64,000 nucleotides of DNA. It comes from Myxococcota bacterium (GTDB taxonomy: Bacteria > Myxococcota_A > UBA9160 > JAFDDA01). A program made the position numbers and the translations under genes. Of the stretch, positions 28,834 through 49,624 are shown piece after piece (positions within the stretch are counted from its first letter, which is position 1; every line of letters begins with the position of its first letter). The notes under the pieces are model-generated. The model did not search any database. It was not told the DNA's origin and was given only the letters and a program-made list of their open reading frames with translations. The stretch spans positions 1,472,001-1,536,000 of the forward strand of contig OZ245817.1 in the NCBI GenBank assembly GCA_965228475.1, written 5' to 3'.

Positions 28834-30717
28834 TCACGCGGTCGTGAAACGGCCGTGGACCTCGGTCAGGGCTTCGGGCAGGCGCTCCGGGTGACTCAGC
28901 ACGTGCCACCTCCCGGGTCCGAACATCGGCGGCAGGTAGTCGCGCGCGACGGCGTCGACGGCCAGGGCGTGCGGGTGGACGCCCGCCGTCTCGGCTTCGC
29001 GGAGGGCCTGGCGGACGTCGGCGATGCCGTAGCGTCCTTCATAGCGGTCGTAGTCCGTCGGCTTGCCGTCGCTGACCAGAAGTAGCAGGCGGCGGTCCGC
29101 AGGTTCGGCGGCGAGGCAGGCGGTCGCGTGGCGGATCGCCGGGCCGATCCGCGTGTAGCCGCGGGGCTCGAGGGCGCCGAGCCGGTCCCGTACGGCGGGC
29201 CAGGTCTCGCCGAAACCCTTCACCTCCCAGACGCGGCACTGGTTCCGCGTGTGGCTCGAGAAGCCGAGGATCTGGAGCGCGTCGTCGAGCCGGTGTGCGA
29301 CTTCGCCGAGGACCGTCACGGCGTCGCGGGCGACGTCGAGAACGCGGCGCCCATCCACCCAGGAGTCGGTCGAGAGAGACAGGTCGAGGAGGACGGTGGT
29401 CGCGAAGTCCCGCCGCTGGCGGGCCTGCCGGACGTAGAGCCTCGGGTCCATCCCGCGGCCTGCGCAGCGGGAGCCGTGGGACTCGACGAGGGCGCCGAGG
29501 TCGACGTCCTCGCCGTCGAGCTGGCGGCTGCGCGGTCGGAGCTGCGAACGCTGGAGCGCGAGCCGGTGGAAGAGCTCGTCGACGAGCCGTGCGTGGTCTC
29601 GCAGCCGGCCGGCCGCCCAGCCGGGGCGCGTTTCGCGCGCCGGGCTCGGGAAGACCGTGCACCACTCGGGCCGGTAGCGCTTCTTGCGCGCATCCCACTC
29701 GTCGTAGGGGATGCCGGGCTCCTGGCTCGTCGCGTCCGCGGCGTCCGGGATGTCGAGTCCGAGGGCCAGGTCCGCACGAAGGAGCGAGTGGGCTTCGTCG
29801 TCGCTGCGGAGCAGGTCGCCGAGGTCGACGGAGTCGAGCGCATCGAGGTGGGCATCGAGTTCGTCGGCTCCGTCCACGTCGCGCGCGCCTCCGTCGTACG
29901 CGTCGAGCGTCTCGGCCTTCTCGAAGTTGTGGATCAGGACGGCGTCCTCCTGCTCCTTCTCGTCGAGCTCGACGCGGCGCAGGGCTTCGATGGCCGGCGC
30001 GTCGGCCTCGCTCTCGATCTCCGAGGGCCCGGGCGGTTGCTCCGGCGAGGCGCCGAGGCTCTTCAGGTCTTCCGGAGCCTCGAGCAGCTCCCCCCAGATC
30101 GCGATGCCCGGGCTTGCGGGGCCCTTCAGCGGCGCGGCCTCGATCGCGGCCCGTCTCTCGGGCTCGGTCCAGGGCCGCTCTCCCCGAAGCGCGGCCTGGC
30201 GTGCTTCTTCGACGAGCCGCGCGCGGCCGCGGAGTGAGGAGGGGTCGGGCCGCACCGACAGCGTCAGCGCCGCCGCCTCGGCGTGCATGCGGGGGAAGCC
30301 CGCGAACTGGCGACCCAGCGAGTCGACGGCCTCTCGTGCCAGACGCAGTGCTTCGAGGGGGTCGCCGATGCGCTCCGAAGGGAGGCGCCGCTCGCGAACG
30401 AGCCGGCGCAGCTCCGCGGCGACCGCCGTCCGCACCACGAGCAGGCGCCGGTTGGCCTCGGGATCCTCGGCGAGGTCGAAGCGCGGCGGAATCAGGAGAT
30501 CGCGCCCGCGGACGCCACCGACTCCGCGCGCCGGCAGGAGCCGAACGGGCTCCCGCGCCAGAATCTGGGCGAGGGTCGAAAGCGCGCGTTCCGAATCGGC
30601 CAGGTTCGCTGCCTGTGGGTTCGGAGCCGGTTCGCTGCGGAGGCGCTTCCAGATCGAGAGCAGACCGCGGAAGACCCCTTCTTCCCAGTCGAGCTCGATG
30701 TGGGGCCCGCCGGCCAT
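28834..30717 (-). CDS. norD: Nitric oxide reductase activation protein NorD (VWA domain)
   Basis: YDEWD, DGEDVD, MIDAS motif DLSLS, GYTRIGPAIRHA and SDGKPTDYDRYEGRYG; start overlaps the norQ stop. Confidence 0.92.
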   Translation of the reverse strand: MAGGPHIELDWEEGVFRGLLSIWKRLRSEPAPNPQAANLADSERALSTLAQILAREPVRLLPARGVGGVRGRDLLIPPRFDLAEDPEANRRLLVVRTAVAAELRRLVRERRLPSERIGDPLEALRLAREAVDSLGRQFAGFPRMHAEAAALTLSVRPDPSSLRGRARLVEEARQAALRGERPWTEPERRAAIEAAPLKGPASPGIAIWGELLEAPEDLKSLGASPEQPPGPSEIESEADAPAIEALRRVELDEKEQEDAVLIHNFEKAETLDAYDGGARDVDGADELDAHLDALDSVDLGDLLRSDDEAHSLLRADLALGLDIPDAADATSQEPGIPYDEWDARKKRYRPEWCTVFPSPARETRPGWAAGRLRDHARLVDELFHRLALQRSQLRPRSRQLDGEDVDLGALVESHGSRCAGRGMDPRLYVRQARQRRDFATTVLLDLSLSTDSWVDGRRVLDVARDAVTVLGEVAHRLDDALQILGFSSHTRNQCRVWEVKGFGETWPAVRDRLGALEPRGYTRIGPAIRHATACLAAEPADRRLLLLVSDGKPTDYDRYEGRYGIADVRQALREAETAGVHPHALAVDAVARDYLPPMFGPGRWHVLSHPERLPEALTEVHGRFTTA

Positions 30718-31526
30718 CAGAAGGCCAGGGCGACGAGGTCTCGCAGGCCCTCGGCGATCTCGGCGTCGTCGGTCAACGCCTCGACCAGGGCGGCGTTGCA
30801 GGCGGCGCGCGGCGGCTGGCCCGCGTCGATCAGCCGCGCCGCGTTCACGATCAGCCGCGTCGAGGGCATCTCCGCCAGGCCCAGTGGCTCGAGTTCGCGC
30901 ATGCGGCGGACGAGGGCGCAGAGCCGCTTCCCGTGGTGCGGATCGATTCCGGTTTCGCCCCGCAGGATCTCGAGTTCGACCTCGGGCTCCGGATAGCCGA
31001 GCGACAGGGCGAGGAAGCGCTGCCGCGTCGAGGGCTTCAGCTCTTTCAAGCCGCGCTGGTAGCCTGGGTTGTAGCTCGCGACCAGCATGAAGCCCTCGGC
31101 CGCCGGAATCTCCTCGTCGTGGCGCTCGACGTAGAGCGTGCGGCGATGGTCCGAGAGCGGGTGGACGACCACCACGACGTCGCTGCGCGCCTCGGCGAAC
31201 TCGTCGAGGTAGAGGATCGCGCCCTGGCGGACGGCGCGGGTCACGGGCCCGTCCTGCCAGACCGTGTCGCCGCCCTCGACGAGGTAGCGCCCGGTGAGGT
31301 CGACGGCGCTCGTCTCGTCGTGGCAGGCAACGGTGACGAGCGGTCGCCCCAGCCGTGCGGCCATGTGCTCGACGAGCCGGGACTTCCCGCAACCCGTCGG
31401 CCCCTTCAGGAGCAGGGGGACCTTCTGCGTGAAGGCCGTCTCGAAGACCTGGCACTCGTTCGCGACGGGCCGGTACCACGGTGCTTCGCCCGGCGCGGCG
31501 GACGGCACCGGCGCAGGGCCGCTCAC
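30717..31526 (-). CDS. norQ: NorQ AAA+ ATPase (CbbQ/NirQ/NorQ family)
   Basis: LKGPTGCGKSR, WQDGP, YLDE, SYNPGYQ and LKPSTRQRF; GTGA overlap with the norB stop. Confidence 0.93.
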   Translation of the reverse strand: MSGPAPVPSAAPGEAPWYRPVANECQVFETAFTQKVPLLLKGPTGCGKSRLVEHMAARLGRPLVTVACHDETSAVDLTGRYLVEGGDTVWQDGPVTRAVRQGAILYLDEFAEARSDVVVVVHPLSDHRRTLYVERHDEEIPAAEGFMLVASYNPGYQRGLKELKPSTRQRFLALSLGYPEPEVELEILRGETGIDPHHGKRLCALVRRMRELEPLGLAEMPSTRLIVNAARLIDAGQPPRAACNAALVEALTDDAEIAEGLRDLVALAF

Positions 31527-32866
31527 CCGGCGTTCCCGGTTTCGAGGGCCTCGTCGCTCGGCAAGCCGTGCTGGGCGAAGTTCCAGATGTAGAGACCGAT
31601 GCCGAGAGTCAGCAGGCACGCGGCCAGCACCAGGCCGAGGAAGTGCACCTCGATCGCTTCCTGCACCGCCAGGAAGTCCATGCCGGCCTTGCGCTCGAGA
31701 TAGACCTGCGTGATTCCCGCGACCGCGAAGGCCCCCGTCATGCCGATCATGCCGATGTTCGAGATCCAGAACGCCCACTCCGCTGCCCAGTGGTCGAAGA
31801 GCTTGCGCCCCGTGAGCTGCGGCATGGCGTAGGAGATCATGGCCAGGACGACCATCACGTACGCACCCCAGAAGGCCATGTGTCCGTGCATGGCGGTGAT
31901 CATGGTGCCGTGGGTCCAGAGGTTCACCTGGGGGAGGGTGTGCGCGAAGCCCAGGAAGCCGGCGCCGACGAAGGACATCACGCCGCAGCCGACCGTCCAG
32001 AACAGAGCAATGCGGTTCGGGTGGCGCATGCCGCCCGCCCGGGCCATGGCGACCGCGTAGAGCGCCATGCCGAGGAAGGCCAGGGGCTCGAGGCCGGAGA
32101 AGATGCCGCCGATCCAGAGCCAGTAGTCGGGCGTGCCGATGTAGTAGTAGTGGTGGCCCGTTCCGAGGATGCCCGACAGGAACGTGAATCCGACGATCAC
32201 GTAGAGCCACTTCTCGATCACCTCGCGGTCGACGCCCGTCAGCTTGATCAACAGGAAGGCCATGATGCCACCCATGATCAGCTCCCAGACGCCCTCGACC
32301 CAGAGGTGCACCACCCACCATCGGAAGTAGGAATCGATCACCTGGCTGTCGAAGGTGATCATGCCCGGCAGGTAGAGGAGGGCGGCGGCCGTGAGACCGA
32401 CGAAGAGCACGATGCTCGTCGTCGTGAATCGCTTCCCGAACCAGAGCGTCATGCCGATGTTGAAGATGAACAGCAGCACGTCGACCACCACCAGATAGTC
32501 GAGGGGACGCGGGATCTCGAGGAACTTGCGTCCTTCCCACCAGTTCATCTGGAAACCGATGAGCGCGATCACCCCGACGATGACGAGCGCCGCCCACTGG
32601 ACCACGGCGAGCTTCTCGCTGTAGAGCTCGCGGTCCGCTTCCTCGGGAATCATGTAGTACGCCGCGCCCATGAAGCCCGAGAGCAGCCAGACGACGAGCA
32701 GGTTCAGGTGGCTCGCGCGGGCGGCGTTGAACGGGATGTAGTCGTGGAGGACGTCGAAGCCCATGTGCGCCACGGCCATGATGAAGCCGAAGACGATCTG
32801 GAGGCAGAAGAGTGCGAGCGAAGTCGCGAAGAAGAGGTAGGCCACACGCTGGGATCGAAACTTCAT
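31523..32866 (-). CDS. norB: Nitric oxide reductase catalytic subunit B (cNOR)
   Basis: HLN, WWVVHLWVEGVWE, GTGHHYY, LEP, HTLPQVN and HGHMAFWG. Confidence 0.96.
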   Translation of the reverse strand: MKFRSQRVAYLFFATSLALFCLQIVFGFIMAVAHMGFDVLHDYIPFNAARASHLNLLVVWLLSGFMGAAYYMIPEEADRELYSEKLAVVQWAALVIVGVIALIGFQMNWWEGRKFLEIPRPLDYLVVVDVLLFIFNIGMTLWFGKRFTTTSIVLFVGLTAAALLYLPGMITFDSQVIDSYFRWWVVHLWVEGVWELIMGGIMAFLLIKLTGVDREVIEKWLYVIVGFTFLSGILGTGHHYYYIGTPDYWLWIGGIFSGLEPLAFLGMALYAVAMARAGGMRHPNRIALFWTVGCGVMSFVGAGFLGFAHTLPQVNLWTHGTMITAMHGHMAFWGAYVMVVLAMISYAMPQLTGRKLFDHWAAEWAFWISNIGMIGMTGAFAVAGITQVYLERKAGMDFLAVQEAIEVHFLGLVLAACLLTLGIGLYIWNFAQHGLPSDEALETGNAG

Positions 32867-32876: not shown

Positions 32877-33566
32877 CTAGCGAAGGCTCGCGAGCCACTG
32901 GACGAGCTCGGAGCGGGTGGCGTCGGACATGTCGAGCTTCGGCATGGCGGTGCCGGGTTTCACCGCCGGCGGATCCGCCAGCCAGCGGTCGAGCTCGGCG
33001 ACGGAGAGCCGGGACCCCACGCCGTCGAGGGCGGGGCCGACCACACCGCCGCTTCCGCCCACGGCGTGGCAGGCAATGCAGACGCTGCTGAAGAAGGCCG
33101 GCGTCGGCAGGCCCGCATCCGGCGTGGCGGTTGCGACGACCACGGCTCGGGCGAGGTCCGGCTCCGGCGGGAAGCCGTTCGTGTCGATCTCGCCGATCCA
33201 ACCGAGGAACGCGATCACGTCCTCGATCTCCTGCTCGCTGAAGTCGTACTGGATCATGCGCCGCTGGCCCGGGAACATGGCCTCGGGGTCGCGCAAGAAG
33301 ATCGCGATCCACTCGGCGCCGCGGCGCTCGACCACCCTCGTCAGCTCCGGCGCGTAGTAGGCGCCCTCACCGAGGATCGTGTGGCAGCCCATGCAGTTGT
33401 TCTTGTCCCAGATGTGCTTGCCGCGAACGACCGATTCGGTCATGCGGTCCTGGTTCTGGAGCTTCGGGATCTCGCGGAGCGTATCGATCGTGAGGAAGAT
33501 GAAGATCGCACTGAAGAAGAGGGTTCCTCCGACGAAGAACCCGCGCGCTTGTGATTTCGAGAGCAT
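32877..33566 (-). CDS. norC: Nitric oxide reductase cytochrome c subunit with a second c-haem domain
   Basis: N-terminal TM helix, CMGCHTILGEGAYYAPEL, then a second CIACH...GPAL...KPGTAMP domain. Confidence 0.92.
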   Translation of the reverse strand: MLSKSQARGFFVGGTLFFSAIFIFLTIDTLREIPKLQNQDRMTESVVRGKHIWDKNNCMGCHTILGEGAYYAPELTRVVERRGAEWIAIFLRDPEAMFPGQRRMIQYDFSEQEIEDVIAFLGWIGEIDTNGFPPEPDLARAVVVATATPDAGLPTPAFFSSVCIACHAVGGSGGVVGPALDGVGSRLSVAELDRWLADPPAVKPGTAMPKLDMSDATRSELVQWLASLR

Positions 33567-33604
33567 CGCCGTCCCCTGCACCGACAGGTGCCGAAATCAG
33601 CACA

Positions 33605-33620
33605 TGCAAGTGCGGGACCA
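33605..33620 (-). promoter_or_regulatory. sigma54 promoter of norCBQD
   Basis: Minus strand TGGTCCCGCACTTGCA (GG-N10-GC). Confidence 0.7.
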
Positions 33621-33709
33621 AGCTCCCCTGGATCTCAGCGCTTCTCCCGTGTGCGCCCGTCCGGCCCGCGGGGTGGAATGTCCCAGCCGCCGAGGCGCTG
33701 AGGCGGCCC

Positions 33710-33735
33710 GGCGCAGGAGAGCGACCTCCTGCGCC
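33710..33735 (-). terminator. 10-bp stem hairpin downstream of the USP operon
   Basis: GGCGCAGGAG-N6-CTCCTGCGCC; no U-tract. Confidence 0.45.
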
Positions 33736-33748
33736 AGCGGCCTTCGCG

Positions 33749-34012
33749 CTACACGAGCTTGCGTACGTGCTCGTAGCCCTCGCGGATCTCGTCGAGCAGG
33801 AGACGGGCGGCGTCGCCCACGTCCTGCGCCGAGGCGCGGGTCTCGGAAGCGAGCAGGTTGAGCTTCGCCTCGAGGTGCTCCCAGCTCTTCTCCGCCGCTT
33901 CGTAGCGTTCCTGGGCTTCGAGCTTCGCCAGGTGGATCTGGACGCGCAGCTCGTCGCGAAGACTGCGCAGCTCGTCGGCTTCGGCCTGGATCCGGTCTTT
34001 CAGGTCGGACAT
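33749..34012 (-). CDS. Small helical hypothetical protein (87 aa)
   Basis: ATG overlaps the USP stop; helical sequence LRDELRVQIHLAKLEAQ...EIREGYE. Confidence 0.75.
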   Translation of the reverse strand: MSDLKDRIQAEADELRSLRDELRVQIHLAKLEAQERYEAAEKSWEHLEAKLNLLASETRASAQDVGDAARLLLDEIREGYEHVRKLV

Positions 34013-34935
34013 CAGTTCTCCCCTTCGTCTCGGTTTCTGCGGACCGTCAGCACGGGGCAGGGCGCGCGGCCCACCGCCCGCTCCGCGGTGCTGCCGAGCA
34101 GCAGGTGCGGCAGGAACGATCGTCCGTGCGTGCCCATGGCGATCAGGTCGACGTCGCGGCGGCGCGCCTCGCTCTCGATGCCCTCGGCGGCGTCGCCCTC
34201 CATGCAGGCGGTCGTGATCCGGTAGCCCTTCTCGCCGAGGGGCTTCGCGGCCTTCTCGAGCTCCGCGCGCGCCTGCTCGAGGGCGCCCCGCGTCATGTCG
34301 GAGAGGACGAAGCCGCCGGCCAGGTGGATGTACTCCGGCGGGATGTGGAACGCGTGGAAGAGCACGAACTCGGTCTCCTCCCCGGCGCCGAACAGATCGA
34401 GGGCCGTCTGCAGCGCGAGGGCGGCGTCTTCGGAGAAGTCCGTCGGCACGAGCACGCGCTTCAGCTGCTCGGGGGGCAGCATGTCCGTCTGGACCGTCAG
34501 CACCGGTACCGCGGAATGCTGGACCAGGCGCTTGGCCGTGCTGCCGAGCACGAGGTGGCGCAGGCCGCGCAGGCCGCGGGTCCCGCTGATGATCAGGTCG
34601 GCCTCGTGCTCCTCGGCGGCGGCGAGGATCGTCGGGGAGGCGGGGCCGACCCGCAGGTCGCTCACCGCGTCGATGCCCTCGGCCCGGAGCCGCTGGACCT
34701 CTTCGTCGAGCCGGTCGCTCACCGCCTTGCGGTACTGGACGTGGAGCTCGGCCGGGTAGGCCGCGAACTCGGGGAACCCCGGCGCGCCCTGGGGCGGTGC
34801 CAGCGCATGCTGCAGCACGAGGCGCGCGCCCCGCTGCTTGCCGAGGAGCCTCCCCCAGGCCAGCGCCACGTTCGCGCACTCGGAGAAGTCCGTGGCGACG
34901 AGGACGGTCGAAAGGGGAGCCGGGTTCGGGGGCAT
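34012..34935 (-). CDS. Tandem-domain universal stress protein
   Basis: Two repeats: VLVATDFS...GTRG...LGSTA and VLVPTDFS...MGTHG...LGSTAE...PCPVLTV; AGGAGG RBS. Confidence 0.93.
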   Translation of the reverse strand: MPPNPAPLSTVLVATDFSECANVALAWGRLLGKQRGARLVLQHALAPPQGAPGFPEFAAYPAELHVQYRKAVSDRLDEEVQRLRAEGIDAVSDLRVGPASPTILAAAEEHEADLIISGTRGLRGLRHLVLGSTAKRLVQHSAVPVLTVQTDMLPPEQLKRVLVPTDFSEDAALALQTALDLFGAGEETEFVLFHAFHIPPEYIHLAGGFVLSDMTRGALEQARAELEKAAKPLGEKGYRITTACMEGDAAEGIESEARRRDVDLIAMGTHGRSFLPHLLLGSTAERAVGRAPCPVLTVRRNRDEGEN

Positions 34936-34989
34936 TGCGTTTCCTCCTGTTCCGTAGATCTAAGACGCTTCGCGGCGCATGCAAGCGAT

Positions 34990-35005
34990 TTCAAGTCGCA
35001 TGCCA
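34990..35005 (-). promoter_or_regulatory. sigma54-like promoter of the USP operon (TTGA variant at -12)
   Basis: Minus strand TGGCATGCGACTTGAA. Confidence 0.55.
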
Positions 35006-35099
35006 GCAGGGCAGAGCGCTGCGGTGCGCCTTTCGGGCCCGCCTGCGCCAGAACGCCCCACTGCCCGAGCCGTCCCCGGCGGCAGAGGCGTCCGGAGTG

Positions 35100-35115
35100 C
35101 GGCACGATCGATGCA
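35100..35115 (+). promoter_or_regulatory. sigma54 promoter of the CBS gene
   Basis: CGGCACGATCGATGCA (GG-N10-GC). Confidence 0.7.
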
Positions 35116-35169
35116 ACGCTGCAGGGAACGAGGCGGCGAGCGTCAAGCAGCGCTCGCCGAGGAGGAGCC

Positions 35170-35604
35170 ATGGATCCGCGCGAGGTACCGGTTTCGGAGA
35201 TCATGCAGGCCGACTTCGTCCACATGTCGCCGGACGACGATCTCGACTACGTCTCGGAGCTCGTCCAGCTCGGGCGAGTCCGGCACTTCGCCGTGCTCGA
35301 CGAGGGACGGCTCGTCGGCATCGTCTCGCAGCGCGATCTGTTGAAGGCCTCTCTCACGAAGGCGCTGCCGGTCGCCGAGGAACGGCGCCGGGAGTTCCTG
35401 CGCACGGTGCGCGTCGGCGAGGTGATGGCGACCGACGTCCACACCGTGGCGCCGGACACGCCGCTCTCGGACGTCGCCCGGCTCCTCGATCGCTACAAGA
35501 TCGGCTGCGTGGTCGTCGTCGAGGGCGACAAGGCGGTCGGGATCGCGACGGAGACCGATCTCCTGCGACGCGCCTACATCGGAGATCGCCCCGCCGGCAG
35601 CTAG
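35170..35604 (+). CDS. Stand-alone CBS-pair protein
   Basis: GGAGGAG RBS; VRHFAV, LVGIVSQRDLL, VGEVM and VGIATETDLL. Confidence 0.9.
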   Translation: MDPREVPVSEIMQADFVHMSPDDDLDYVSELVQLGRVRHFAVLDEGRLVGIVSQRDLLKASLTKALPVAEERRREFLRTVRVGEVMATDVHTVAPDTPLSDVARLLDRYKIGCVVVVEGDKAVGIATETDLLRRAYIGDRPAGS

Positions 35605-36980
35605 CCGGCCTTGCTCTCCTCGGCCGAGGCGCGGCGGCGCTCGCCGCGCCGGTAGAGGGTTCGCCGATTGATTCCGAGGATCTCGGCCGCGCGGACCTTG
35701 TTGCCGCCCGTTTCCGAGAGCACGAGGTCGATGTAGCGGTCGCCGAGGTCGTGGAGCGTGACGCGATGCTTCGCGAAGGCCCGCAGGTCGCCGTCGGTCC
35801 CGCTGGCGGCGGCGCCCTCGTCGCCGAGCGGCAGGTCCTCCTCCTCGATCCGCTCGCCGTCGCAGAGCGCGAGCGCGCGCTCGATCACGTTCTCGAGCTC
35901 CCGAGCGTTCCCCTCCCAGTTGCAGCGCATGAGCCGCGCGAGGGCGCCCGGCGAGAGCGTGCGCGTCTCGCCGTCGGCGTGCTTCTCGAGCAGGGCCTCC
36001 GCCAGGGGGCGGACGTCGTCCGGCCGCTCGCGCAGGGGCGGGATGTGGATCGGGATCACGTTCAGCCGGTAGAAGAGGTCGCGCCGGAAGCGGCCCTCGT
36101 CCATCTCGGCCTCGAGCTCCTTGTTGGTGGCGGTCACGATGCGGACGTCCACCTTGACGGTGTGGTTCCCGCCGACCGGCCGGATCTCCCGATCCTGGAG
36201 GACGCGGAGGAGCTTGCTCTGCAGGCCGAGGCCCATGTCCCCGATTTCGTCGAGGAAGAGCGTTCCGCCGTTCGCTTCCTCGAAGAGCCCTCGCTTCGAA
36301 GCGTGCGCGCCCGTGAAGGCACCGCGCACGTGGCCGAAGAGTTCACTCTCGAGCAGGCCTTCGGGGATGGCCGTGCAGTTGATCGGGATGAACGGGCGGT
36401 CCTTGCGCGAGCTGGAGAAGTGGAGCGTCCTCGCGACGACCTCCTTGCCCGTGCCGCTCTCGCCCGTGATGAGGACGCTGCTCCGGTTGTCCGCGACCTT
36501 GCGGATCAGCGCGAAGATCTCGCGCATCGCGTCGCTCTCGCCGATCAGGTCGCCGAAGGCGCTCGTCCGGTCGACGGCGCGGCGCAGGCGCCGGTTCTCC
36601 TCTTCGAGGGCGCGGGTCTCGAAGGCGCGCTCCAGGGCGAGCAGCAGCTCTTCGCGCTTGAAGGGCTTGGTGATGTAGTCGAAGGCGCCGGCGCGCATGG
36701 ACTCGACGGCCGAGTCGATCGAGCCGAAGGCGGTCATCAGGATCACCGGGGTTCCCGGCCGCACGGCGCGGATCTCCGCCACCAGCTCGAGCCCGCTCCG
36801 GCCGGGCATGCGGATGTCCGAGACCACCGCGTCGGCATCGAGGTCGCGCAGCCGTTCGAGGGCCTTGTCGGCTCCCGACTCGCCGTGGGCCTCGAAGCCC
36901 TGATCGCAAAGCACCGAGACGACCATTTCGCGCATCGCGTCGTCGTCGTCGACCACCAAGACGTGTCGCCGTTCACTCAT
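35601..36980 (-). CDS. NtrC-family sigma54-dependent response regulator
   Basis: Receiver domain (VVDDD, SDIRMPG, KPF), Walker A GESGTGKE, GAFTGA loop, FLDEIG, FRRDLFYRL and a Fis-type HTH. Confidence 0.96.
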   Translation of the reverse strand: MSERRHVLVVDDDDAMREMVVSVLCDQGFEAHGESGADKALERLRDLDADAVVSDIRMPGRSGLELVAEIRAVRPGTPVILMTAFGSIDSAVESMRAGAFDYITKPFKREELLLALERAFETRALEEENRRLRRAVDRTSAFGDLIGESDAMREIFALIRKVADNRSSVLITGESGTGKEVVARTLHFSSSRKDRPFIPINCTAIPEGLLESELFGHVRGAFTGAHASKRGLFEEANGGTLFLDEIGDMGLGLQSKLLRVLQDREIRPVGGNHTVKVDVRIVTATNKELEAEMDEGRFRRDLFYRLNVIPIHIPPLRERPDDVRPLAEALLEKHADGETRTLSPGALARLMRCNWEGNARELENVIERALALCDGERIEEEDLPLGDEGAAASGTDGDLRAFAKHRVTLHDLGDRYIDLVLSETGGNKVRAAEILGINRRTLYRRGERRRASAEESKAG

Positions 36981-36996
36981 AGCTACCCTTCGCCAA

Positions 36997-37012
36997 AGCA
37001 CGGCCCGTGCCA
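36997..37012 (-). promoter_or_regulatory. sigma54 promoter of the activator gene
   Basis: Minus strand TGGCACGGGCCGTGCT. Confidence 0.65.
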
Positions 37013-37144
37013 GCGGGAGGGGCGCTGAGGCGGCTCTCCGGGCTCCCCGCCGGTCGAGTCGAGCCAAGAAGGCACACTCTCGGACTGAGTGTAGCAATAA
37101 GTCTCATGTCGTCCCGCTGCGCCGGGCGGTCTTCGCCCCGCGCT

Positions 37145-37160
37145 TGGCACGCGCTCTGCA
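37145..37160 (+). promoter_or_regulatory. sigma54 promoter of the CBS gene
   Basis: TGGCACGCGCTCTGCA. Confidence 0.72.
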
Positions 37161-37172
37161 CCCAACTCGGGC

Positions 37173-37565
37173 ATGCACGCGGTCCAAGATCTGATGCGGA
37201 GGCAGTTCATCCGGATCGAGCCGGATGCCGACCCGCGGGCCGCCCTCGAGCTCATGGAGATGGCGCGGGTCCGGTCGCTGCCGGTGCTGGCTCGCGGAGC
37301 GCCCCCCGGCTGGATCCTGCACCGGGATCTGGCCCAGGCAGCCCTCGACGGCAGCCTCGATCAGGAGTCGGGCATCGGCCGCTGGGTGCGGCCCGGGCTG
37401 CCGGTCCCCGTCCACATGCCGCTCTCGGACGCCGTCGAGAAGATGCTCGAGGCGGATGCGCCGTGTCTCATGGCGGCGGACTTCGAGGCCGACCCGCCGC
37501 ACATCGTCGGCCTGGTCACCGAGTCGGATCTGCTGCGCGCCGCGTACCTGAGCGCCAACGCCTAG
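37173..37565 (+). CDS. Diverged stand-alone CBS-pair protein
   Basis: VQDLM, VRSLPV and IVGLVTESDLLRAAY; resembles the gene at 35170. Confidence 0.8.
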   Translation: MHAVQDLMRRQFIRIEPDADPRAALELMEMARVRSLPVLARGAPPGWILHRDLAQAALDGSLDQESGIGRWVRPGLPVPVHMPLSDAVEKMLEADAPCLMAADFEADPPHIVGLVTESDLLRAAYLSANA

Positions 37566-37573
37566 CGGTTGGC

Positions 37574-38875
37574 CTAGGCCGTCTCCGGAGCGTCGGCCTT
37601 CGCCTGCGCCAGCGGGAGCCGGATCTCGAAGCACGTTCCCTTGCCGACTTCGCTCGTCACGTCGAGGACGCCCCCGTGGTCGCCCACGATGCCCTGGGCG
37701 ACGACCAGGCCGAGGCCGTTGCCCTGGCCCGCGGGCTTGGTGGTGAAGAACGGCTCGAAGATGTGCGCGAGCTGGTCCGCATCCATGCCCGCGCCGGTGT
37801 CCGCGAAGGTCAGCTCGAGTGTTTCCTCCGCGCCGGGACGGAGGGAGACGGTCAGGGTGCCGCCGCCTTCGGCCATGGCGTCGGCGGCGTTGAGGGCGAG
37901 GTTCAAGAAGAGCTGTTGGAGCTTCTCCGGGTCCCCGAGGACCGAGGGCGTCGGCTGGTAGTCCGTCTTCACCTCGACGGCGAGCCGCCGGAGCTTCACG
38001 CCGAGGAAGGAGAGGGTCGTCTCGAGCAGGGGCTCGAGCGCGACGGGCTCGCGGATCGACTCGCGCGGCCGCGCCATGTTCAAGAGCGCCTGGATGATGC
38101 GCGAGATCCGGTCGATCTGGTCGCGGATGGTGTTCAGCCGCCAGCGGGCCTTCTCGTCGGAGACGGCGGGTTCGAGCGCTTCGGCGTGGCCCTGGATCAC
38201 GCTCATGGGCGTCCCGATCTCGTGGGCGAGGCCGGCGGCCAGCGTGGCGACGGAGGCGAGGTCCTCGGCGGCGCGCGCGCGCCGGCTCGTCTGGCGCAGC
38301 TCGTGGGTGCGGTCGTCGAGGGTGCGGGTGAGGGAGCGGCTCGCTTCGGCGAGCTCGCGGTTCAGGTGCTCGAGCTGCTCCTCGTGGCGCGCGATGTAGG
38401 TCTCCATCGCGAGCTGCGCATCGAGCATCAGGCGCTTCATCAGTGCGGAGAGGGCGAGCTCGCAGCGGTCGACGGCCTGGCCGAAGGCGTCGCGCACGAT
38501 CGGCATGAGCAGCGTGAAGTAGAGGGTGTAGGCGCCGAGGTACCAGCGCGGTTCGAGCCCGATCCGCGCGTGGACCTCCCCGATCCGCAGCCGCTCGGCG
38601 ACGTAGGTCTCGTCGATGTCCGAGCCGAAGAGCGAGATCAGGTACGCGCGCTGGCTCTTCAGGAGGCGGGCCTTCACGGCCGGGTCCGAGAGCAGCCCGC
38701 GGGTCTCCTCGAAGGAGAGCAGGTGCCGGTAGAAGGCCGAGACGAGCGTGTCCGCCCGCTTCTCGACGTCGGGGCGCAGGCTCGCCAGGAGGCGGAGCTC
38801 GCCCGCGTCGAGGTTCAGGAAGGCCAGCCGGGTCTGGAGATCCGTTTGGAAGTCGCGGGTTTCCACTGCCCCCAT
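37574..38875 (-). CDS. Globin-coupled sensor histidine kinase (protoglobin + HisKA + HATPase; start uncertain)
   Basis: Sensor globin (FYRHL, RLRIGEVHARIGLEPRWYLGAY with the proximal His); H-box AHEIGTPM; N, G1, F and G2 boxes NAADAM, DTGAG, FEPFFTTK and GLGL. Confidence 0.92.
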   Translation of the reverse strand: MGAVETRDFQTDLQTRLAFLNLDAGELRLLASLRPDVEKRADTLVSAFYRHLLSFEETRGLLSDPAVKARLLKSQRAYLISLFGSDIDETYVAERLRIGEVHARIGLEPRWYLGAYTLYFTLLMPIVRDAFGQAVDRCELALSALMKRLMLDAQLAMETYIARHEEQLEHLNRELAEASRSLTRTLDDRTHELRQTSRRARAAEDLASVATLAAGLAHEIGTPMSVIQGHAEALEPAVSDEKARWRLNTIRDQIDRISRIIQALLNMARPRESIREPVALEPLLETTLSFLGVKLRRLAVEVKTDYQPTPSVLGDPEKLQQLFLNLALNAADAMAEGGGTLTVSLRPGAEETLELTFADTGAGMDADQLAHIFEPFFTTKPAGQGNGLGLVVAQGIVGDHGGVLDVTSEVGKGTCFEIRLPLAQAKADAPETA

Positions 38876-39011: not shown

Positions 39012-39027
39012 TGGCACGGCGCTTGCG
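39012..39027 (+). promoter_or_regulatory. Consensus sigma54 promoter of the di-iron operon
   Basis: TGGCACGGCGCTTGCG, an exact TGGCACG-N4-TTGC match. Confidence 0.85.
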
Positions 39028-39071: not shown

Positions 39072-39962
39072 ATGTCGGATTTTCTCTCGGGTTACTCGAT
39101 CCAGTACTGGTTGGAGTCCTGCCCCCAGGGCTACCTCGAAGACACGGAGTTCGGTCACAAGGCCGACGCCAAGGAGCCCGCGCTCGTTCTCGAGAACGAC
39201 CTCATGCGGCAGCAGGCCATCCAGGTCACGACCCAGATGGTCGTCGGCGAGCGCTGTGCCCTGGCCGCCTCCTCGGGCCTGATCAACGCCGCGCCCGACG
39301 AAGCCGCGAAGCGCTTCCTCGCCACCCAGACCCTCGACGAAGCGCGACACGTGGAAGTGTTCACCCAGCGCCTGTTCGACCTCGGCGTCAAGAAGCAGGA
39401 TCTCGAGTCGACGATCCGCGAGTACGCGAACCCGAACCTCGTGAAGTTCGCCGAGCGGCTGCTCGAGAAGGTCGACAACAAGGACTTCATCCCCGGCGTG
39501 GTCGGCCAGAACATCATCCTCGAAGGGATGGCCTTCAGCGTCTTCGAGATGACGCACGCGGCCAACAAGGAGCTCAACCCGAAGTTCGCTCAAACCCTCG
39601 CCGGTACGATCGCCGACGAGCGGCGTCACGTCGGGTTCGGTGAGAACTACATCGGGGCCCTGATCAAGGCGCAGCCGGAGAAGAAGGCCGAGATCGAGAA
39701 GATGCAGAAGGAGATGTCCTACTACATGCTCGCCACCTTCGCGGACCAGTTCCGCGGCGACGAGAACCGCAAGGAGCTCGACGAGATGCGCCGCCAGGCG
39801 CGCGAGGCCGGCGGCACGGGCGAAGGCACGTGGCAGGGGCAGAACCTCTCGGATCTCGAACCGGACCAGATGGAGGGGCTGCTCTCGGACACGGTCCTGC
39901 ATGAGTTCAAGACGCGGCTCGGGCGGATCGGGATCGACTACCAGACGCCGTCGCAGCCCTAG
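39072..39962 (+). CDS. Ferritin-like di-iron carboxylate protein A
   Basis: GGAGGA RBS; ligand pattern VGE...DEARH...ILE...DERRH. Confidence 0.85.
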   Translation: MSDFLSGYSIQYWLESCPQGYLEDTEFGHKADAKEPALVLENDLMRQQAIQVTTQMVVGERCALAASSGLINAAPDEAAKRFLATQTLDEARHVEVFTQRLFDLGVKKQDLESTIREYANPNLVKFAERLLEKVDNKDFIPGVVGQNIILEGMAFSVFEMTHAANKELNPKFAQTLAGTIADERRHVGFGENYIGALIKAQPEKKAEIEKMQKEMSYYMLATFADQFRGDENRKELDEMRRQAREAGGTGEGTWQGQNLSDLEPDQMEGLLSDTVLHEFKTRLGRIGIDYQTPSQP

Positions 39963-39973: not shown

Positions 39974-40756
39974 ATGGCAGAGTCGGCCGAGGTCCATGGC
40001 CTCACCCCCGAAGAGTTCGAGGAGCGGGTTCACTCCTTCCAGTTCTGGTTCGATTCGGTCCAGGGCTATCTCTCGGGGAGCGAGTACGGCCATCAGGCCC
40101 ATTCGCCGCCCGCTTCCGAGGACATGGACGCCTCGGAGAAGGACCGGCTCATCACGGTGCTCTGCAACTACTGCGTCGGAGAGACCGCTGCGCTCGATGG
40201 AGCCAGCGGCCTCGTCGCGGGGGCGCCCAACCGGCTGACGAAGATCTTCCTCTCGACCCAGGTCGTGGACGAAGGCCGGCACCTCGAGGTGCTGCGCAAC
40301 CGGCTCGTCGAGCTCGGCGTGGCCGACCCGGAGGAGGAGATCGAGCGCCGTGCGACGCCGCGCCTGCGGGACTTCCGTTCCCGGCTCCAGGCGCTCGTCG
40401 CCGAGCGGGATTGGGAGGCGGCGATCTTCGCCCAGAACGTGATCCTCGAAGCGATGGAGTTCGCCACCTTCCACACCCACGCGCAGCACGCGGACCCGGT
40501 CACGCGGGAAGTGCTGCAGGGGATCATCAAGGACGAGCGCCGGCACATCGGGTTCGGCGAGCGGGAGCTCGGACGGCGCCTGAAGCACCACCCGACCCTG
40601 CGCCATCGCCTGGCGCGCGTGCGCAGCCAGCTCGACCCGCTCGTGCTTGCCTCCTTCGAAGACGCCATGGGGGAGCTGAAGGTCCCGGTCGACGAGCGCG
40701 AGCAGCTCGGCCGGAGCTACCTCGAGGCGGTGGAGCGCCTGGGGGTGGGGCTGTGA
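39974..40756 (+). CDS. Ferritin-like di-iron carboxylate protein B (paralog of A)
   Basis: GAGGAG RBS; VGE...DEGRH...ILE...DERRH; N-terminal SFQFWFDSVQGYL...GH motif shared with A. Confidence 0.85.
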   Translation: MAESAEVHGLTPEEFEERVHSFQFWFDSVQGYLSGSEYGHQAHSPPASEDMDASEKDRLITVLCNYCVGETAALDGASGLVAGAPNRLTKIFLSTQVVDEGRHLEVLRNRLVELGVADPEEEIERRATPRLRDFRSRLQALVAERDWEAAIFAQNVILEAMEFATFHTHAQHADPVTREVLQGIIKDERRHIGFGERELGRRLKHHPTLRHRLARVRSQLDPLVLASFEDAMGELKVPVDEREQLGRSYLEAVERLGVGL

Positions 40757-45003: not shown

Positions 45004-45567
45004 CTAGCTCCCGGGCGGAGCGGCGTCGGGCGCACCCACCCCCGGTTCGTCGGACTTCGGCAGCGTCTCCAGGTACGCCAGGGCCTTCCAGATCTTCTCG
45101 GACCCGAGCTGCACGCCCCAGGGCGGCATCCCGAGCGGGCGCCCTTCGGCCACGCTCACGTACAGCGCCTCGTCGTCGTCCCCGTACTTCCAGTAGGGAT
45201 CGACCAGGCTCGGCCCGACCAGGCCGCGGCCGTCCGCGAGGTGGCAGGCGGCGCAGGTCGTGGCGAACACCTCGCGGCCCTCCTCGATGGCCGCGGCGTC
45301 GCCGCGGAACGGGTTCTCCGAGGGCAGCTCCGGGCGGTTCGCCGCGATCACCGCCTGGGCGGTCTCGACCTCGGCCCGCCACTGACCCTCGGCGGACCAG
45401 CCGGAGAACAGGTAGTAGGGCGTGTAGATGCAGGCGAAGAGGATCGACGCGACGAAGGTCCAGTTGAACCACGGCGGGATCGGGTTGTCTTCCTCTTCGA
45501 TGCCGTCGCGCATCGGCGCGCCTTCGGTCGGGAGCTCGGCGATCTTCTCGTGCAGTTCGTCGTTCAT
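45004..45567 (-). CDS. ccoP: cbb3 oxidase subunit III, mono-haem
   Basis: DGIEEEDNPIPPW, TM helix, one CAACH and GMPPW. Confidence 0.88.
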   Translation of the reverse strand: MNDELHEKIAELPTEGAPMRDGIEEEDNPIPPWFNWTFVASILFACIYTPYYLFSGWSAEGQWRAEVETAQAVIAANRPELPSENPFRGDAAAIEEGREVFATTCAACHLADGRGLVGPSLVDPYWKYGDDDEALYVSVAEGRPLGMPPWGVQLGSEKIWKALAYLETLPKSDEPGVGAPDAAPPGS

Positions 45568-45716
45568 CCCTCGTCCTCTTCGAGCATGCGCCGCGCCGGC
45601 GCTTCCAGGCGTTCCCGGTTGGCGGGGCGGTACAGGTAGGCGGTGATCCCGGCCAGCACGAGAGCCAGCAGCGCAAGGCGGCCGAACTTGTAGATGGCGA
45701 CCCAGTCTTCCGTCAC
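45564..45716 (-). CDS. ccoQ: cbb3 oxidase subunit CcoQ
   Basis: 50-aa single-TM ORF overlapping the ccoO stop and the ccoP start; YLYRPANRERLE...MLEED. Confidence 0.75.
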   Translation of the reverse strand: MTEDWVAIYKFGRLALLALVLAGITAYLYRPANRERLEAPARRMLEEDEG

Positions 45717-46423
45717 GGTGCACTCTCCATTCGCGAGGCCTCGAAGGATTCCCGCGTCACCGCGGTGCCGAGGGCCTGGAGGTAGGCGATCAGGGCCAGC
45801 GCCTCGCTGCGCATGTTCTCCTCGGAGAGCGTGAGCCCGTCCTTCTGCAGGGAGGCGACGACGGTGGCGGCCTCGGCCCAGGCGTCGTCGGCCGCGTTCG
45901 CGATCTCTTCGTCGGAGTAGGGGTGACCGAGACCCCGCAGGACGGAGAGCTTCTTCGAAGAGAGCGACGTATCGAGCTCGTTCGTCAGCAGGAAGCCGAA
46001 GTCCGGCATGTTCGAGCGCGGCTCGATGCTGCGCGGCTCCTTCAGGTGGATCCAGTGCCAGGAGTCCGGGTACTTCTTCCCGATGCGCGCCAGGTCCGGC
46101 CCCGTGCGCCGCGAGCCGAACAGGAATGGGCGGTCGTAGACGTGCTCGCCGGCCATCGTGAAGGGGCCGTAGCGATCGGTTTCGCTGCGCAGCGGACGGA
46201 TCTGCTGGCTGTGGCAGACGTTGCAGCCCTCCCGGATGTAGATGTCCCGGCCCTCGAGCTCGAGCGCGCTGTAGGGCCGCACGCCGGGGATCGCGACGAT
46301 CGTTCCCTGGAGGAAGTAGGGCGGGATCAGGAGGGCGAGGCCGCCCACCGCGATCGCGAGCAGCGTCAGCACGGTGAACGTCACGCCCTTGGCTTCGAGC
46401 TTCCGGTGTCCTTCCCACGCCAT
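45713..46423 (-). CDS. ccoO: cbb3 oxidase subunit II
   Basis: GRDIYIREGCNVCHSQQIRP, GSRRTGPDL and SNMP. Confidence 0.96.
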   Translation of the reverse strand: MAWEGHRKLEAKGVTFTVLTLLAIAVGGLALLIPPYFLQGTIVAIPGVRPYSALELEGRDIYIREGCNVCHSQQIRPLRSETDRYGPFTMAGEHVYDRPFLFGSRRTGPDLARIGKKYPDSWHWIHLKEPRSIEPRSNMPDFGFLLTNELDTSLSSKKLSVLRGLGHPYSDEEIANAADDAWAEAATVVASLQKDGLTLSEENMRSEALALIAYLQALGTAVTRESFEASRMESAP

Positions 46424-47926: not shown

Positions 47927-47942
47927 TGCAAAGGCAGTACCA
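47927..47942 (-). promoter_or_regulatory. sigma54 promoter of ccoNOQPGHIS
   Basis: Minus strand TGGTACTGCCTTTGCA. Confidence 0.75.
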
Positions 47943-47979
47943 AGGGCGGGGCGAAGGGATGGCTCGCTCCGCACTGCGG

Positions 47980-48027
47980 TGTGCCTTTCTGGCGCAATCG
48001 AGGGGTTTCGAGGGACGAAACGGCACG
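47980..48027. promoter_or_regulatory. Pair of candidate activator (UAS) sites shared by two divergent sigma54 promoters
   Basis: TGTGCC-tttct-GGCGCA (47980-47996) and AGGGAC-gaaac-GGCACG (48011-48027), 31 bp apart. Confidence 0.55.
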
Positions 48028-48065
48028 AACCCGAGGTCGTCGGCCGGAGCTTCGGGCCGTCCCGC

Positions 48066-48081
48066 TGGTACAAAACCTGCT
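48066..48081 (+). promoter_or_regulatory. sigma54 promoter of the hemerythrin gene
   Basis: TGGTACAAAACCTGCT. Confidence 0.7.
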
Positions 48082-48093: not shown

Positions 48094-48534
48094 ATGTCCA
48101 GCCGCGAAGATCAGACCGGCCTGCGCCTGCGCATCGACCGCGAGGCGCGCCGCATCTCCTCCCAGCACCGCCAGCTCGATGTCTTCTACGAGCGCGTGAT
48201 CCACTTCCTCACCGGTGGCGACGCCGCCCGCGCCCGCGCCGAGTTCCTCCGGCTCTGCGACGCGCTCGAGGCACACTTCACCGTCGAGGAGCGCATGCAC
48301 TTCCCCGCATTGCACGGCCTGCGTCCCGAGCTCGACGCCGAGCTCGCCGGGCTCGTGGAAGAACACAAGGCGTTTCGCTCGGCGCTCGAAGCGATCACCG
48401 GACATCTCCAAGGCTCGGAGCTCGGCCGGGCTTCCGCGGCCCTCGACCGGCTCGTGGTCGACCTGGCCGCCCACGAAGGGCGCGAGGAGAAGATGGCCGA
48501 GCAGCTCGATCGGTCGCCCGGCGAGACCCGCTGA
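48094..48534 (+). CDS. Hemerythrin-like (HHE cation-binding) protein
   Basis: QH...[11 protein letters not shown]...EH...HEGREE ligand pattern. Confidence 0.85.
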
Positions 48535-48605
48535 CACGCTCCGGGGCCGTTTCGTGACCCTTTGCCCCGTTCGTTCCCGCCGCGAGCGATGAGTTCGCGC
48601 AGGAG

Positions 48606-48621
48606 CGGCACGCTCCTTGCT
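48606..48621 (+). promoter_or_regulatory. sigma54 promoter of the outer-membrane protein gene
   Basis: CGGCACGCTCCTTGCT. Confidence 0.75.
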
Positions 48622-48652
48622 CATGGACATGGCAATCCCAGAGGAGGGTGTC

Positions 48653-49624
48653 ATGTCTCTCAGGCGCATCACTCGCGCAATCGCCGTCATCGTCTTGTTC
48701 GCCGCCAACCCGGTATCGGCCGCGGCCCCCGAAGACTGTCCCAAGTGGTTCCCCGACTTCCGGTGTGACCGGGCCCCGCGCTACGAGGGATTCGTCATGC
48801 CCATGACGGCGCCCTACCTCTTCGAGGAGCCCTTCGTGAACTCGGGCTTCGCGCTGCAGTACGTGCACCACGACTTCCCGGACGACTCGGTCCTCGACGG
48901 CGGGTACGCCTCGGTGCTGGCGCTCCAGGCGCGGGTCGCGATCACCGACCGCCTGGCCTTCATCGCCACCAAGGACGGCTACACCTGGCTTCGGCCGGGC
49001 CACCGCCTCCTGCGCGACCAGCAGGGATTCTTCGACATCACGGCGGGCTTCAAGTACGTCCTGATCGATCGGCCCGAGGACAACTTCATCCTCACGCCGA
49101 GCCTCCGCTTCGAGGTGCCGACGGGCAGCTCGGACGTCTTCTCCGGAAACGGCAACGGCGTGGCGATCCCGGGCGTGTCCTGGGGCTGGGGCCTCGGGAA
49201 CTTCCACATCCTCGGGAACCTCGGCGGGCAGATCCCCTTCGACCGCGGGGACGAGAGCACGTCGCTCTTCTACAACTTCCACTTCGACTACGGCGTCCAC
49301 AAACACTTCGTGCCCTTCATGGAGCTGAACGGCCAGCACTGGACCGACAGCGGCACCGGCGGCTTCCGCGTGCGCACCCGGGTCGGGACGCTGCCGCTTC
49401 GCACCATCCAGAACCTGCTCGGGAACGGCCGCGGCGACGGCAACGACGTGGTGAACCTGGGCTCCCAGGGCGTGGACGGGAACAACATCGTGACGCTGGC
49501 CTTCGGCGCCCGGATCCCGCTGACGAAGCACGTGCACGCGGGCTTCGCCTACGAGTTCCCGGTGACGTCGCGGGAAGATCTCTTCCAGCAACGCGGGCAG
49601 GTCTCCCTGAACTACGAGTTCTAG
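48653..49624 (+). CDS. Putative outer-membrane beta-barrel protein
   Basis: GAGGAGG RBS, signal peptide, amphipathic beta strands and a C-terminal VSLNYEF BAM-type signal. Confidence 0.75.
   Translation: MSLRRITRAIAVIVLFAANPVSAAAPEDCPKWFPDFRCDRAPRYEGFVMPMTAPYLFEEPFVNSGFALQYVHHDFPDDSVLDGGYASVLALQARVAITDRLAFIATKDGYTWLRPGHRLLRDQQGFFDITAGFKYVLIDRPEDNFILTPSLRFEVPTGSSDVFSGNGNGVAIPGVSWGWGLGNFHILGNLGGQIPFDRGDESTSLFYNFHFDYGVHKHFVPFMELNGQHWTDSGTGGFRVRTRVGTLPLRTIQNLLGNGRGDGNDVVNLGSQGVDGNNIVTLAFGARIPLTKHVHAGFAYEFPVTSREDLFQQRGQVSLNYEF

Follow-up and report, generated by a model that had tools for sequence, protein, structure and literature searches.

The window analyzed here is a 64,000-nucleotide stretch of the genome of a Myxococcota bacterium (G000:C1:1472001-1536000, G000 being the source genome). 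It contains an island in which a globin-coupled histidine kinase and an NtrC-type activator of sigma-54 lie between an NO reductase operon and a cbb3 oxidase unit, together with genes for CBS-pair, Usp, di-iron, hemerythrin-domain, and outer-membrane proteins. An initial annotation, made from the DNA letters and a list of open reading frames (ORFs), described the island as a self-contained O2-sensing sigma-54 regulon. We followed up this description computationally and consider it likely that these genes form a sigma-54 regulon under the control of one two-component pair.

The genome is a single contig of 5.006 Mb with 70.5% G+C, and the order of the source organism, as sampled, comprises 12 families with genomes of 2-6.4 Mb. 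Genes were mapped by ORF picking guided by GC3 (G+C content at third codon positions), combined with Pfam, NCBIfam, and PDB searches. Crude genome-wide GC3 gene calls over-extend starts and swallow promoters, and their use was limited to the sampling of intergenic controls. For comparison, 30 relatives were searched, and 15 loci (the related loci) were fetched out of those carrying kinase orthologues. Sigma-54 itself is encoded once in the genome (Sigma54_DBD, 1.8e-63), alongside 22 sigma-54 activators. The two putative regulatory proteins are encoded as follows.

37574-38935, minus strand: globin-coupled histidine kinase (Pfam Protoglobin 2.4e-38, HisKA 2.1e-13, HATPase_c 3.7e-26)
35601-36980, minus strand: NtrC-type sigma-54 activator of 459 residues, with a receiver domain (D55), an AAA+ domain, and a Fis-type helix-turn-helix (HTH)

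Both proteins thus lie within the island, as the initial annotation had it. The kinase more likely starts at 38875 than at 38935, given that alignments with orthologues begin only around residue 22-31. Searches of the PDB matched its globin domain to those of HemAT (1.3e-15) and AfGcHK (2e-9). With numbering from the 38875 start, residues Y49, H102, and H218 do not vary among 10 orthologues, and we take these, from what is known of HemAT and AfGcHK, to be the B10 tyrosine, the F8 histidine, and the H-box histidine. The kinase is the sole protoglobin match in the whole genome. The activator matches Sigma54_activat (1.1e-72), Response_reg (3e-28), and HTH_8 (5.4e-11), carries a GAFTGA loop at residue 220, and matches the NtrC-family structure 4l4u in the PDB (4e-97).

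The initial annotation placed ten -24/-12 elements before genes of the island and one outlying gene. All ten are present at most one base from those positions, upstream of genes and in the right orientation.

23314-23329, minus strand: promoter of CBS1 (outlying)
33605-33620, minus strand: promoter of norCBQD
34990-35005, minus strand: promoter of usp, the -12 element reading TTGA
35100-35115, plus strand: promoter of CBS2, divergent from the usp promoter
36998-37012, minus strand: promoter of the activator gene, the putative autoregulation site
37145-37160, plus strand: promoter of CBS3, divergent from the activator promoter
39012-39027, plus strand: promoter of R2a-R2b, with an exact TGGCAC-N5-TTGC
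47928-47942, minus strand: promoter of the ccoN unit, divergent from the hemerythrin promoter
48066-48081, plus strand: promoter of the hemerythrin gene, divergent from the ccoN promoter
48606-48621, plus strand: promoter of the outer-membrane beta-barrel-like gene

Every unit of the island but the kinase lies behind such an element. No -24/-12 motif precedes the kinase gene in the window, nor in 14 of the 15 related loci. A sigma-70 match at 38901-38874 (minus strand), the only one in a scan of 33400-39200, was not taken as the kinase promoter because it overlaps the probable kinase start codon. The ATG of the activator gene stands about 31 nt past the GG of its -24 element, which would leave an mRNA leader of only a few bases, and a similarly short distance (33-58 nt to the aligned start) is kept in all 15 related loci.

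The enrichment of these elements was assessed by a scan against shuffled sequence, and here too the initial proposal held. The pattern TGGCAC-N5-TTGC, with at most one mismatch, occurs seven times in the window compared with 2.24 ± 1.48 times in shuffles, and none of 100 shuffles reached seven. Five of the seven matches are proposed promoters; those at 21791 and 50101 are not. A looser pattern, TGGC-N7-TTGC, was not enriched in the window (three matches, 1.4 expected), which means that a more specific pattern is needed. The pattern GGYAC-N6-TGC, which occurs 246 times genome-wide, has eight matches between 22.8 and 49.7 kb of the window, where about 1.3 are expected, and all eight are upstream of a gene and on the correct strand.

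The promoters were also described as lacking an FNR/DNR box, and our searches agree. The exact box TTGAT-N4-ATCAA has no match in the genome, and of ten near-matches in the window, the seven within the range of the island are all in coding sequence. Five Crp/Fnr-type HTH proteins are encoded elsewhere in the genome, so that a non-canonical box is possible.

Upstream of the -24/-12 elements, we found a previously unnoticed inverted repeat, TGTGNC-N5-GNCACA with an A/T-rich center, which is a candidate enhancer. This dyad was first found with the window included and was then re-derived without it, by running a Gibbs sampler on positions -180 to -25 of 15 activator promoters from outside the window; six of 12 seeds gave 16.6-17.0 bits. 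The resulting position weight matrix was made symmetric, and its matches are listed here without strand, with distances counted to the GG of the -24 element.

37060-37076 (10.6 bits) and 37090-37106 (18.7 bits): dyads of the activator gene and CBS3, centers 30 nt apart; 87 and 57 nt from the activator GG, 48 and 78 nt from the CBS3 GG
35044-35060 (10.1 bits): dyad common to usp and CBS2, 48 and 49 nt from the two GGs
38927-38943 (9.3 bits): dyad of R2a-R2b, 78 nt from the GG
47980-47996 (12.0 bits) and 48011-48027 (8.2 bits): pair shared by ccoN and the hemerythrin gene; 47 and 78 nt from the ccoN GG, 79 and 48 nt from the hemerythrin GG
48553-48569 (8.1 bits): dyad of the outer-membrane gene, 46 nt from the GG
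23366-23382 (7.2 bits): dyad of CBS1, 46 nt from the GG
33669-33685 (8.6 bits): candidate dyad of the nor operon, a weak member, about 59 nt from the GG

The site at 37090, between the activator gene and CBS3, is one of two sites in the genome scoring at least 16 bits. At all ten window promoters, the best dyad reaches at least 7.2 bits, at 46-49, 57-59, 78-79, or 87 nt from the GG, and the three divergent promoter pairs each share their dyads. As a control, 19 of 633 intergenic stretches elsewhere in the genome reach 7.2 bits, and 3.3% of random 235-nt windows reach 7 bits. The genome contains 414 sigma-54-like motifs, 14 of which have a dyad of at least 8 bits at 40-125 nt, and seven of these 14 are in the island. 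When the upstream side was compared with a mirror control across the genome, the counts were 14 versus 7 at a threshold of 8 bits, 11 versus 2 at 9 bits, and 6 versus 0 at 12 bits.

The pairing of dyad and sigma-54 motif recurs at CBS, R2, outer-membrane protein, and cco promoters of other genomes, outside the regions used for training. In the 15 related loci, 36 dyad matches fall outside those regions, and 20 of them are followed by a sigma-54 motif at a distance of 40-125 nt, compared with three in the mirror control and a mean of 0.8 (maximum of 5) upon permutation. The distances in these loci bunch at 47-50, 56-61, 70-71, 79-81, and 89-94 nt, repeating about once per helical turn. What the sequences show, then, is the motifs, their phasing, and the conservation of both across an order-level clade of uncultured Myxococcota.

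The region 37012-37145 resembles the reverse complement of 47942-48066, each containing two dyads about 30 nt apart. Similar G+C-rich boxes lie just upstream of the -24 elements in both regions. On the opposite strand, the 5' end or promoter region of the kinase gene overlaps the dyad of the di-iron promoter (38927-38943), and activator bound there might also influence kinase expression.

The same signature was found at a distance from the island. An ORF at G000:C1:4736869-4737360 (plus strand; region G000:C1:4736829-4737360) follows a sigma-54-like motif whose dyad scores 8.4 bits and lies 47 nt away; judged by its sequence, the ORF is probably a fourth CBS-pair gene and a distant member of the regulon. 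Another, at 1083342 (region G000:C1:1083290-1083902, plus strand), is likewise preceded by a sigma-54-like motif, here accompanied at 48 nt by a dyad scoring 12.8 bits, and is possibly a gene for an extracytoplasmic function (ECF) sigma factor belonging to the regulon. The description of the regulon as self-contained was therefore given up, since the signature occurs at the first of these ORFs and possibly also before a gene for an ECF sigma factor.

Full-length kinase orthologues (53-70% identity) were found in 19 of the 30 relatives, with a truncated match in one more. The closest kinase relatives with titled records are all metagenome-assembled genomes of uncultured Myxococcota or "Deltaproteobacteria." The activator gene adjoins the kinase gene, or is separated from it by a CBS gene only, in 14 of the 15 related loci. 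In a second, partly overlapping set of titled loci, the activator is beside the kinase in nine of 15, with five cut by contig ends, and in one locus of this set (L029), no activator was found within 6 kb of the kinase. A sigma-54 motif stands 33-58 nt before the aligned activator start in all 15 related loci, and a CBS gene with its own sigma-54 motif is divergent from the activator in nine. The density of sigma-54-like motifs is 3.2 per 10 kb in the related loci versus 0.83 genome-wide in the source genome. Recurring neighbors of the kinase are CBS, R2-like, Usp, outer-membrane protein, and cco genes and a gene for an 87-residue protein. A sigma-54 motif precedes R2a in five related loci, and in one locus (L014), an orthologue of the outer-membrane gene, with a sigma-54 motif, adjoins cco.

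One putative target is the cbb3 oxidase unit.

~47909-41065, minus strand: ccoNOPG-fixH-ccoI-ccoS unit, with ccoN from 46425 to ~47909 and ccoI encoding a copper P-type ATPase

This gene order replaces the one given by the initial annotation. NCBIfam matches over the cut-off were obtained for ccoN (669.6 bits), ccoO (246.1 bits), and CcoG (407.1 bits), and FixS (7.8e-14) and a short FixH-like gene (1.9e-10) were identified as well. The CcoP protein (45004-45723, minus strand; 239 residues) has a FixP_N domain and one cytochrome c domain and scores 78.5 bits against a cut-off of 179.95, and by these features, it looks like a mono-heme form. A sigma-54 motif precedes ccoN in all five orthologous loci that show the region, four of which have a dyad of at least 8.7 bits. 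The genome encodes three heme–copper oxidase subunits, namely an A-type subunit at 768637, outside the island, CcoN, and NorB, and a search of the genome for cytochrome bd found none. The cbb3 enzyme being the only dedicated high-affinity oxidase found, its induction at low O2 is favored, as in Myxococcus xanthus.

The NO reductase genes lie at the other end of the island.

33566-28834, minus strand: norCBQD operon (norC, 32877-33566; norB, 31523-32866; norQ, 30717-31508; norD, 28834-30717)

NorB matches 3o0r_B (6e-115), and residues 3-135 of NorC match 3o0r_C (7e-36). NorQ matches AAA_5 (3.4e-37) and CbbQ_C (2e-24), and NorD gives a weak VWA match only (4.5e-4). These last two genes, which overlap by one base, take the place of a single 881-residue ORF in the initial annotation. 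That ORF is an artifact of high G+C content, and its first 254 codons cross norQ out of frame. NorC bears an additional C-terminal class-I cytochrome c domain (residues ~136-229) and looks like a fusion with a possible electron-donor cytochrome. No nirS was found in the genome and no nirK over the cut-off, and the NO reductase would therefore act on external NO. NorR was considered as the regulator of nor and rejected; no activator in the genome reaches the NorR cut-off (NCBIfam NF003451) or matches its N-terminal sensor part. The norB gene is present in eight of the 30 relatives, and nor is absent from the kinase neighborhood in all 15 related loci.

The remaining genes of the putative regulon are listed below.

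22847-23281, minus strand: CBS1, CBS-pair gene, outlying member (Pfam CBS, 2.8e-15)
33749-34012, minus strand: gene for an 87-residue coiled-coil protein, overlapping usp, with orthologues in six of the 15 related loci
34012-34935, minus strand: tandem Usp gene (Pfam Usp, 1.9e-57, two stretches)
35170-35604, plus strand: CBS2, CBS-pair gene, with NCBIfam matches to CBS-containing families only
37173-37565, plus strand: CBS3, CBS-pair gene, divergent from the activator gene
39072-39962 and 39974-40756, plus strand: R2a and R2b, ferritin-like di-iron genes with weak R2-like/aldehyde-decarbonylase matches
48094-48534, plus strand: hemerythrin-domain gene (Pfam Hemerythrin, 1.3e-12)
~48653-49624, plus strand: outer-membrane beta-barrel-like gene (Pfam Phenol_MetA_deg, 2.6e-6)

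As a correction to the initial annotation, the unit behind the promoter at 48066 is the hemerythrin gene. R2a and R2b are paralogues, each sharing 36-40% identity with the orthologues of the other (tblastn), and the best solved relative of R2a is the VlmB homologue 6d9f (4.6e-16). The function of two di-iron proteins within a low-oxygen regulon is unexplained.

Based on these observations, we propose the following wiring. The cytoplasmic heme-globin kinase, made from its own promoter of a type other than sigma-54, would sense a diatomic gas, most likely O2, and would set the phosphorylation state of the neighboring activator at D55. The phosphorylated activator would bind the tandem TGTGNC-N5-GNCACA dyads, which share one helical face and have their centers 46-87 nt ahead of the -24 GG. 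Through its GAFTGA loop, it would then open the sigma-54 promoters of its own gene, of three to four CBS-pair genes, and of the genes for the tandem Usp, the hemerythrin, the two di-iron proteins, and the outer-membrane protein. The whole ccoNOPGHIS unit would be a further target and, less surely, norCBQD.

The idea of one pair draws on the kinase and activator being neighbors in 14 of 15 loci, on the single protoglobin protein of the genome, and on searches that found no REC-HisKA-HATPase relay. Positive autoregulation, which the initial annotation had suggested, is consistent in silico with the strongest dyad and a -24/-12 element both standing before the activator gene, here and in 15 of 15 relatives. 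That a single activator serves all the promoters is also plausible, given that a dyad derived from activator promoters of other genomes marks all ten in phase; binding of the activator to this dyad is what the sequence pattern predicts.

As a best guess, low O2 turns the regulon ON, because an A-type oxidase exists outside the island and because hypoxia induces the homologous regulon of M. xanthus. Since no inverter kinase was found, such a sign would demand that the kinase be active as phosphodonor when in its deoxy form.

Several points weigh against this scheme. The sign is the first: AfGcHK is described as activated by O2 (PMC8697598), and NmpU, a protoglobin kinase of M. xanthus, is modeled as O2-activated too (PMC11841059; PMC6211767). 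A direct pair would therefore be ON with O2, unless the polarity is opposite or the kinase is an O2-dependent phosphatase. The scheme is built on sequence and only predicts expression, binding, and phosphotransfer, and the 21 other activators in the genome make cross-regulation possible. Several dyads in the window are weak, at 7-10 bits. The GG-N10-GC spacing is found at nine of the ten promoters, the exception being usp, which has GA at -12 rather than GC; a relative of the same genus (L013) has TTGA at the corresponding position as well, despite diverged flanks. The nor operon, finally, is the part whose membership appears the least sure. The claim that the pair also controls NO reduction gains from the motif and dyad before nor and loses from the deviating -24 box (TGGTCC) and from the eight relatives with norB, of which three have a sigma-54 motif at the equivalent place and one has both the motif and a dyad of at least 8 bits.

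An alternative is that the sensor reports NO, CO, or the redox state of the heme rather than O2 and that the regulon is a response to nitrosative stress. Heme globins bind NO and CO too, and the island does contain a cNOR that, without nirS or an over-cut-off nirK, would act on outside NO. However, the infrequent occurrence of norB among the relatives and its separation from the kinase in every related locus speak against this, as does the conserved core of cbb3, hemerythrin, Usp, and CBS genes, which matches the hypoxia regulon of M. xanthus, and we regard this explanation as unlikely.

A hidden relay would place an unlinked intermediate between the globin kinase and the activator, as NmpS stands between NmpU and NmpR in M. 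xanthus, where NmpU did not phosphorylate NmpR in vitro (PMC6211767). With such a relay, a kinase activated by O2 could still drive a regulon that is ON in hypoxia. There is a conceivable component for it: a 563-residue open frame at G000:C1:1956590-1957642 (plus strand) has receiver-HisKA-receiver matches with no room for an ATPase domain and may, by this architecture, be a phosphotransfer protein. On the other hand, among 37 HisKA and 63 receiver matches in the source genome, no ORF has a receiver N-terminal to HisKA together with room for an ATPase, although these searches used Pfam thresholds, which divergent proteins may escape. No relay gene was found in the 15 related loci by tblastn gene mapping, and for at least eight of the other activators, a HisKA kinase match directly precedes the gene on the same strand. 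We consider a hidden relay quite unlikely.

That several activators serve the sigma-54 cluster, with the local one controlling only itself and the adjacent CBS gene, would fit the number of activators in the genome, the strength of the activator/CBS3 dyad (18.7 bits, others being 7-12 bits), and the lack of a NorR-type activator over the cut-off among many uncharacterized ones, but it is very unlikely in view of the best dyads of all ten promoters, whose phased distances agree against a background of 3%, and of the recurrence of the pairing at CBS, R2, outer-membrane protein, and cco promoters elsewhere.

Returning to a regulon run by one pair, the prediction amounts to a complete and testable wiring diagram (sensor, activator, enhancer, promoters, and targets) of how respiration would respond to oxygen in this uncultured, order-level Myxococcota clade. 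Few respiratory enzymes are known to be controlled by sigma-54, and the cbb3 oxidase, probably together with cNOR, would join them. The enhancer motif and its phased spacing are concrete reagents for electrophoretic mobility shift assays and reporter work.

The initial annotation regarded cco genes as normally under FNR/FixK control. Control of cbb3 by FixLJ and Fnr is mentioned in PMC11841059, but the same paper describes control of cbb3 by an NtrC-like regulator in M. xanthus. Like FixL-FixJ(-FixK), which controls fixNOQP/ccoNOQP in rhizobia, the present system would have a heme sensor kinase governing the high-affinity cbb3 oxidase and its fixGHIS maturation genes. FixL is a heme-PAS sensor with a FixJ-type regulator, acting on sigma-70 promoters via FixK boxes. 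Here, in contrast, the sensor is a globin, the regulator is an AAA+ activator, and the promoters are of the sigma-54 type and lack an FNR/FixK box. The DosS/DosT-DosR system of Mycobacterium tuberculosis is alike in that heme kinases switch on a Usp-rich hypoxia set, which also includes a CBS-only protein. DosS and DosT are GAF-heme sensors with a LuxR-type regulator and sigma-70 promoters, and the domain types of sensor and regulator thus differ, so that there is no homology in those parts. Induction of Usp proteins by the dormancy regulon is cited in PMC11841059. With NorR systems, the island shares an NO reductase gene behind a -24/-12 promoter, but no activator of the genome reaches the NorR cut-off or matches its sensor part, and the candidate nor enhancer is the dyad seen in the rest of the island.

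AfGcHK of Anaeromyxobacter sp. Fw109-5 resembles the kinase in having a globin sensor fused to HisKA/HATPase domains and in the conserved globin Tyr and His. It differs in that its partner is a double-receiver protein rather than an activator (PMC6211767), and the kinase matches the AfGcHK globin less well than that of HemAT.

The closest parallel is the Nmp system of M. xanthus. Its NmpR regulon comprises a CBS gene heading the nmpR operon, Usp, P-type ATPase and cbb3 genes (McAllister et al. 2025, PMC11841059), and further targets are hemN-hemerythrin, nmpUTS, and pilR (PMC11841059). The promoters are of the sigma-54 type, with tandem GCGCA-N5-TGCGC sites mostly 14-15 nt apart, and NmpU is a protoglobin kinase (PMC11841059). 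It phosphorylates the hybrid kinase NmpS and the double-receiver protein NmpT, not NmpR, which is served by NmpS (Bretl et al. 2018, PMC6211767). Both systems have a protoglobin kinase on top, an NtrC-like sigma-54 activator (self-regulating in Nmp and putatively so here) as output, and overlapping regulon content in CBS, Usp, P-type ATPase plus cbb3, and hemerythrin genes. Both also have tandem inverted repeats with a 5-nt spacer, the center-to-center distance being about 30 nt in Nmp, 30-31 nt in the window, and either 19-21 or 31-32 nt in the relatives. The dyad itself is TGTGNC-N5-GNCACA here, not GCGCA-N5-TGCGC. Moreover, the kinase adjoins the activator, no NmpT double-receiver gene was found in the related loci, and no NmpS-type REC-kinase inverter was found in the source genome or the 15 loci, where a divergent protein could escape detection. 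The island adds norCBQD, the two di-iron proteins, and the outer-membrane protein, and no link to pilR was seen.

Protoglobin kinases in Myxococcota records (L059, L060, L080, and L094) occur in at least three layouts: the plain kinase beside an activator, as in the window; a Protoglobin-PAS-kinase, followed in L059 by an activator with CBS and Usp neighbors; and the Nmp-like layout of L060 (uncultured Myxococcales), where a REC-PAS-kinase comes after the protoglobin kinase and the activator is divergent. A quick activator tree of 76 rows, its deep forks unresolved, was built leaving out six rows that lack a GAFTGA match, along with the lowest-ranking of the 22 activator hits of the source genome. 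It groups window-type activators in 25 rows (Shimodaira–Hasegawa-like approximate likelihood ratio test [SH-aLRT], 100), apart from a seven-row clade (SH-aLRT, 100) that holds L060, the Protoglobin-PAS kinase partners L059 and L090, and the Nannocystis rows L071 and L093, kinase domains being verified for L059 only among the last four. In this comparison, L060 stands in for Nmp by architecture only, the tree containing neither NmpR nor any other M. xanthus sequence.

It is conceivable, if rather doubtful, that the direct pair, with an activator clade and a dyad of its own, evolved apart from NmpRSTU, recruited the same low-oxygen effectors independently, and, lacking an inverter, has a deoxy-active kinase like FixL. 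If true, this would be a second signaling mode for globin-coupled kinases, with a polarity opposite to that of AfGcHK and NmpU, and the high-affinity oxidase and the NO reductase would be wholly sigma-54-dependent. Among the titles and abstract openings returned by full-text searches, only those on Nmp pair a protoglobin kinase with a regulator of the NtrC type. The system is a two-protein counterpart of the four-protein Nmp pathway with largely similar targets, rather than a wholly new kind. The comparison raises the question of what the relay kinase is for, one idea being that its sole role may be to reverse the output sign where the globin kinase is activated by O2.

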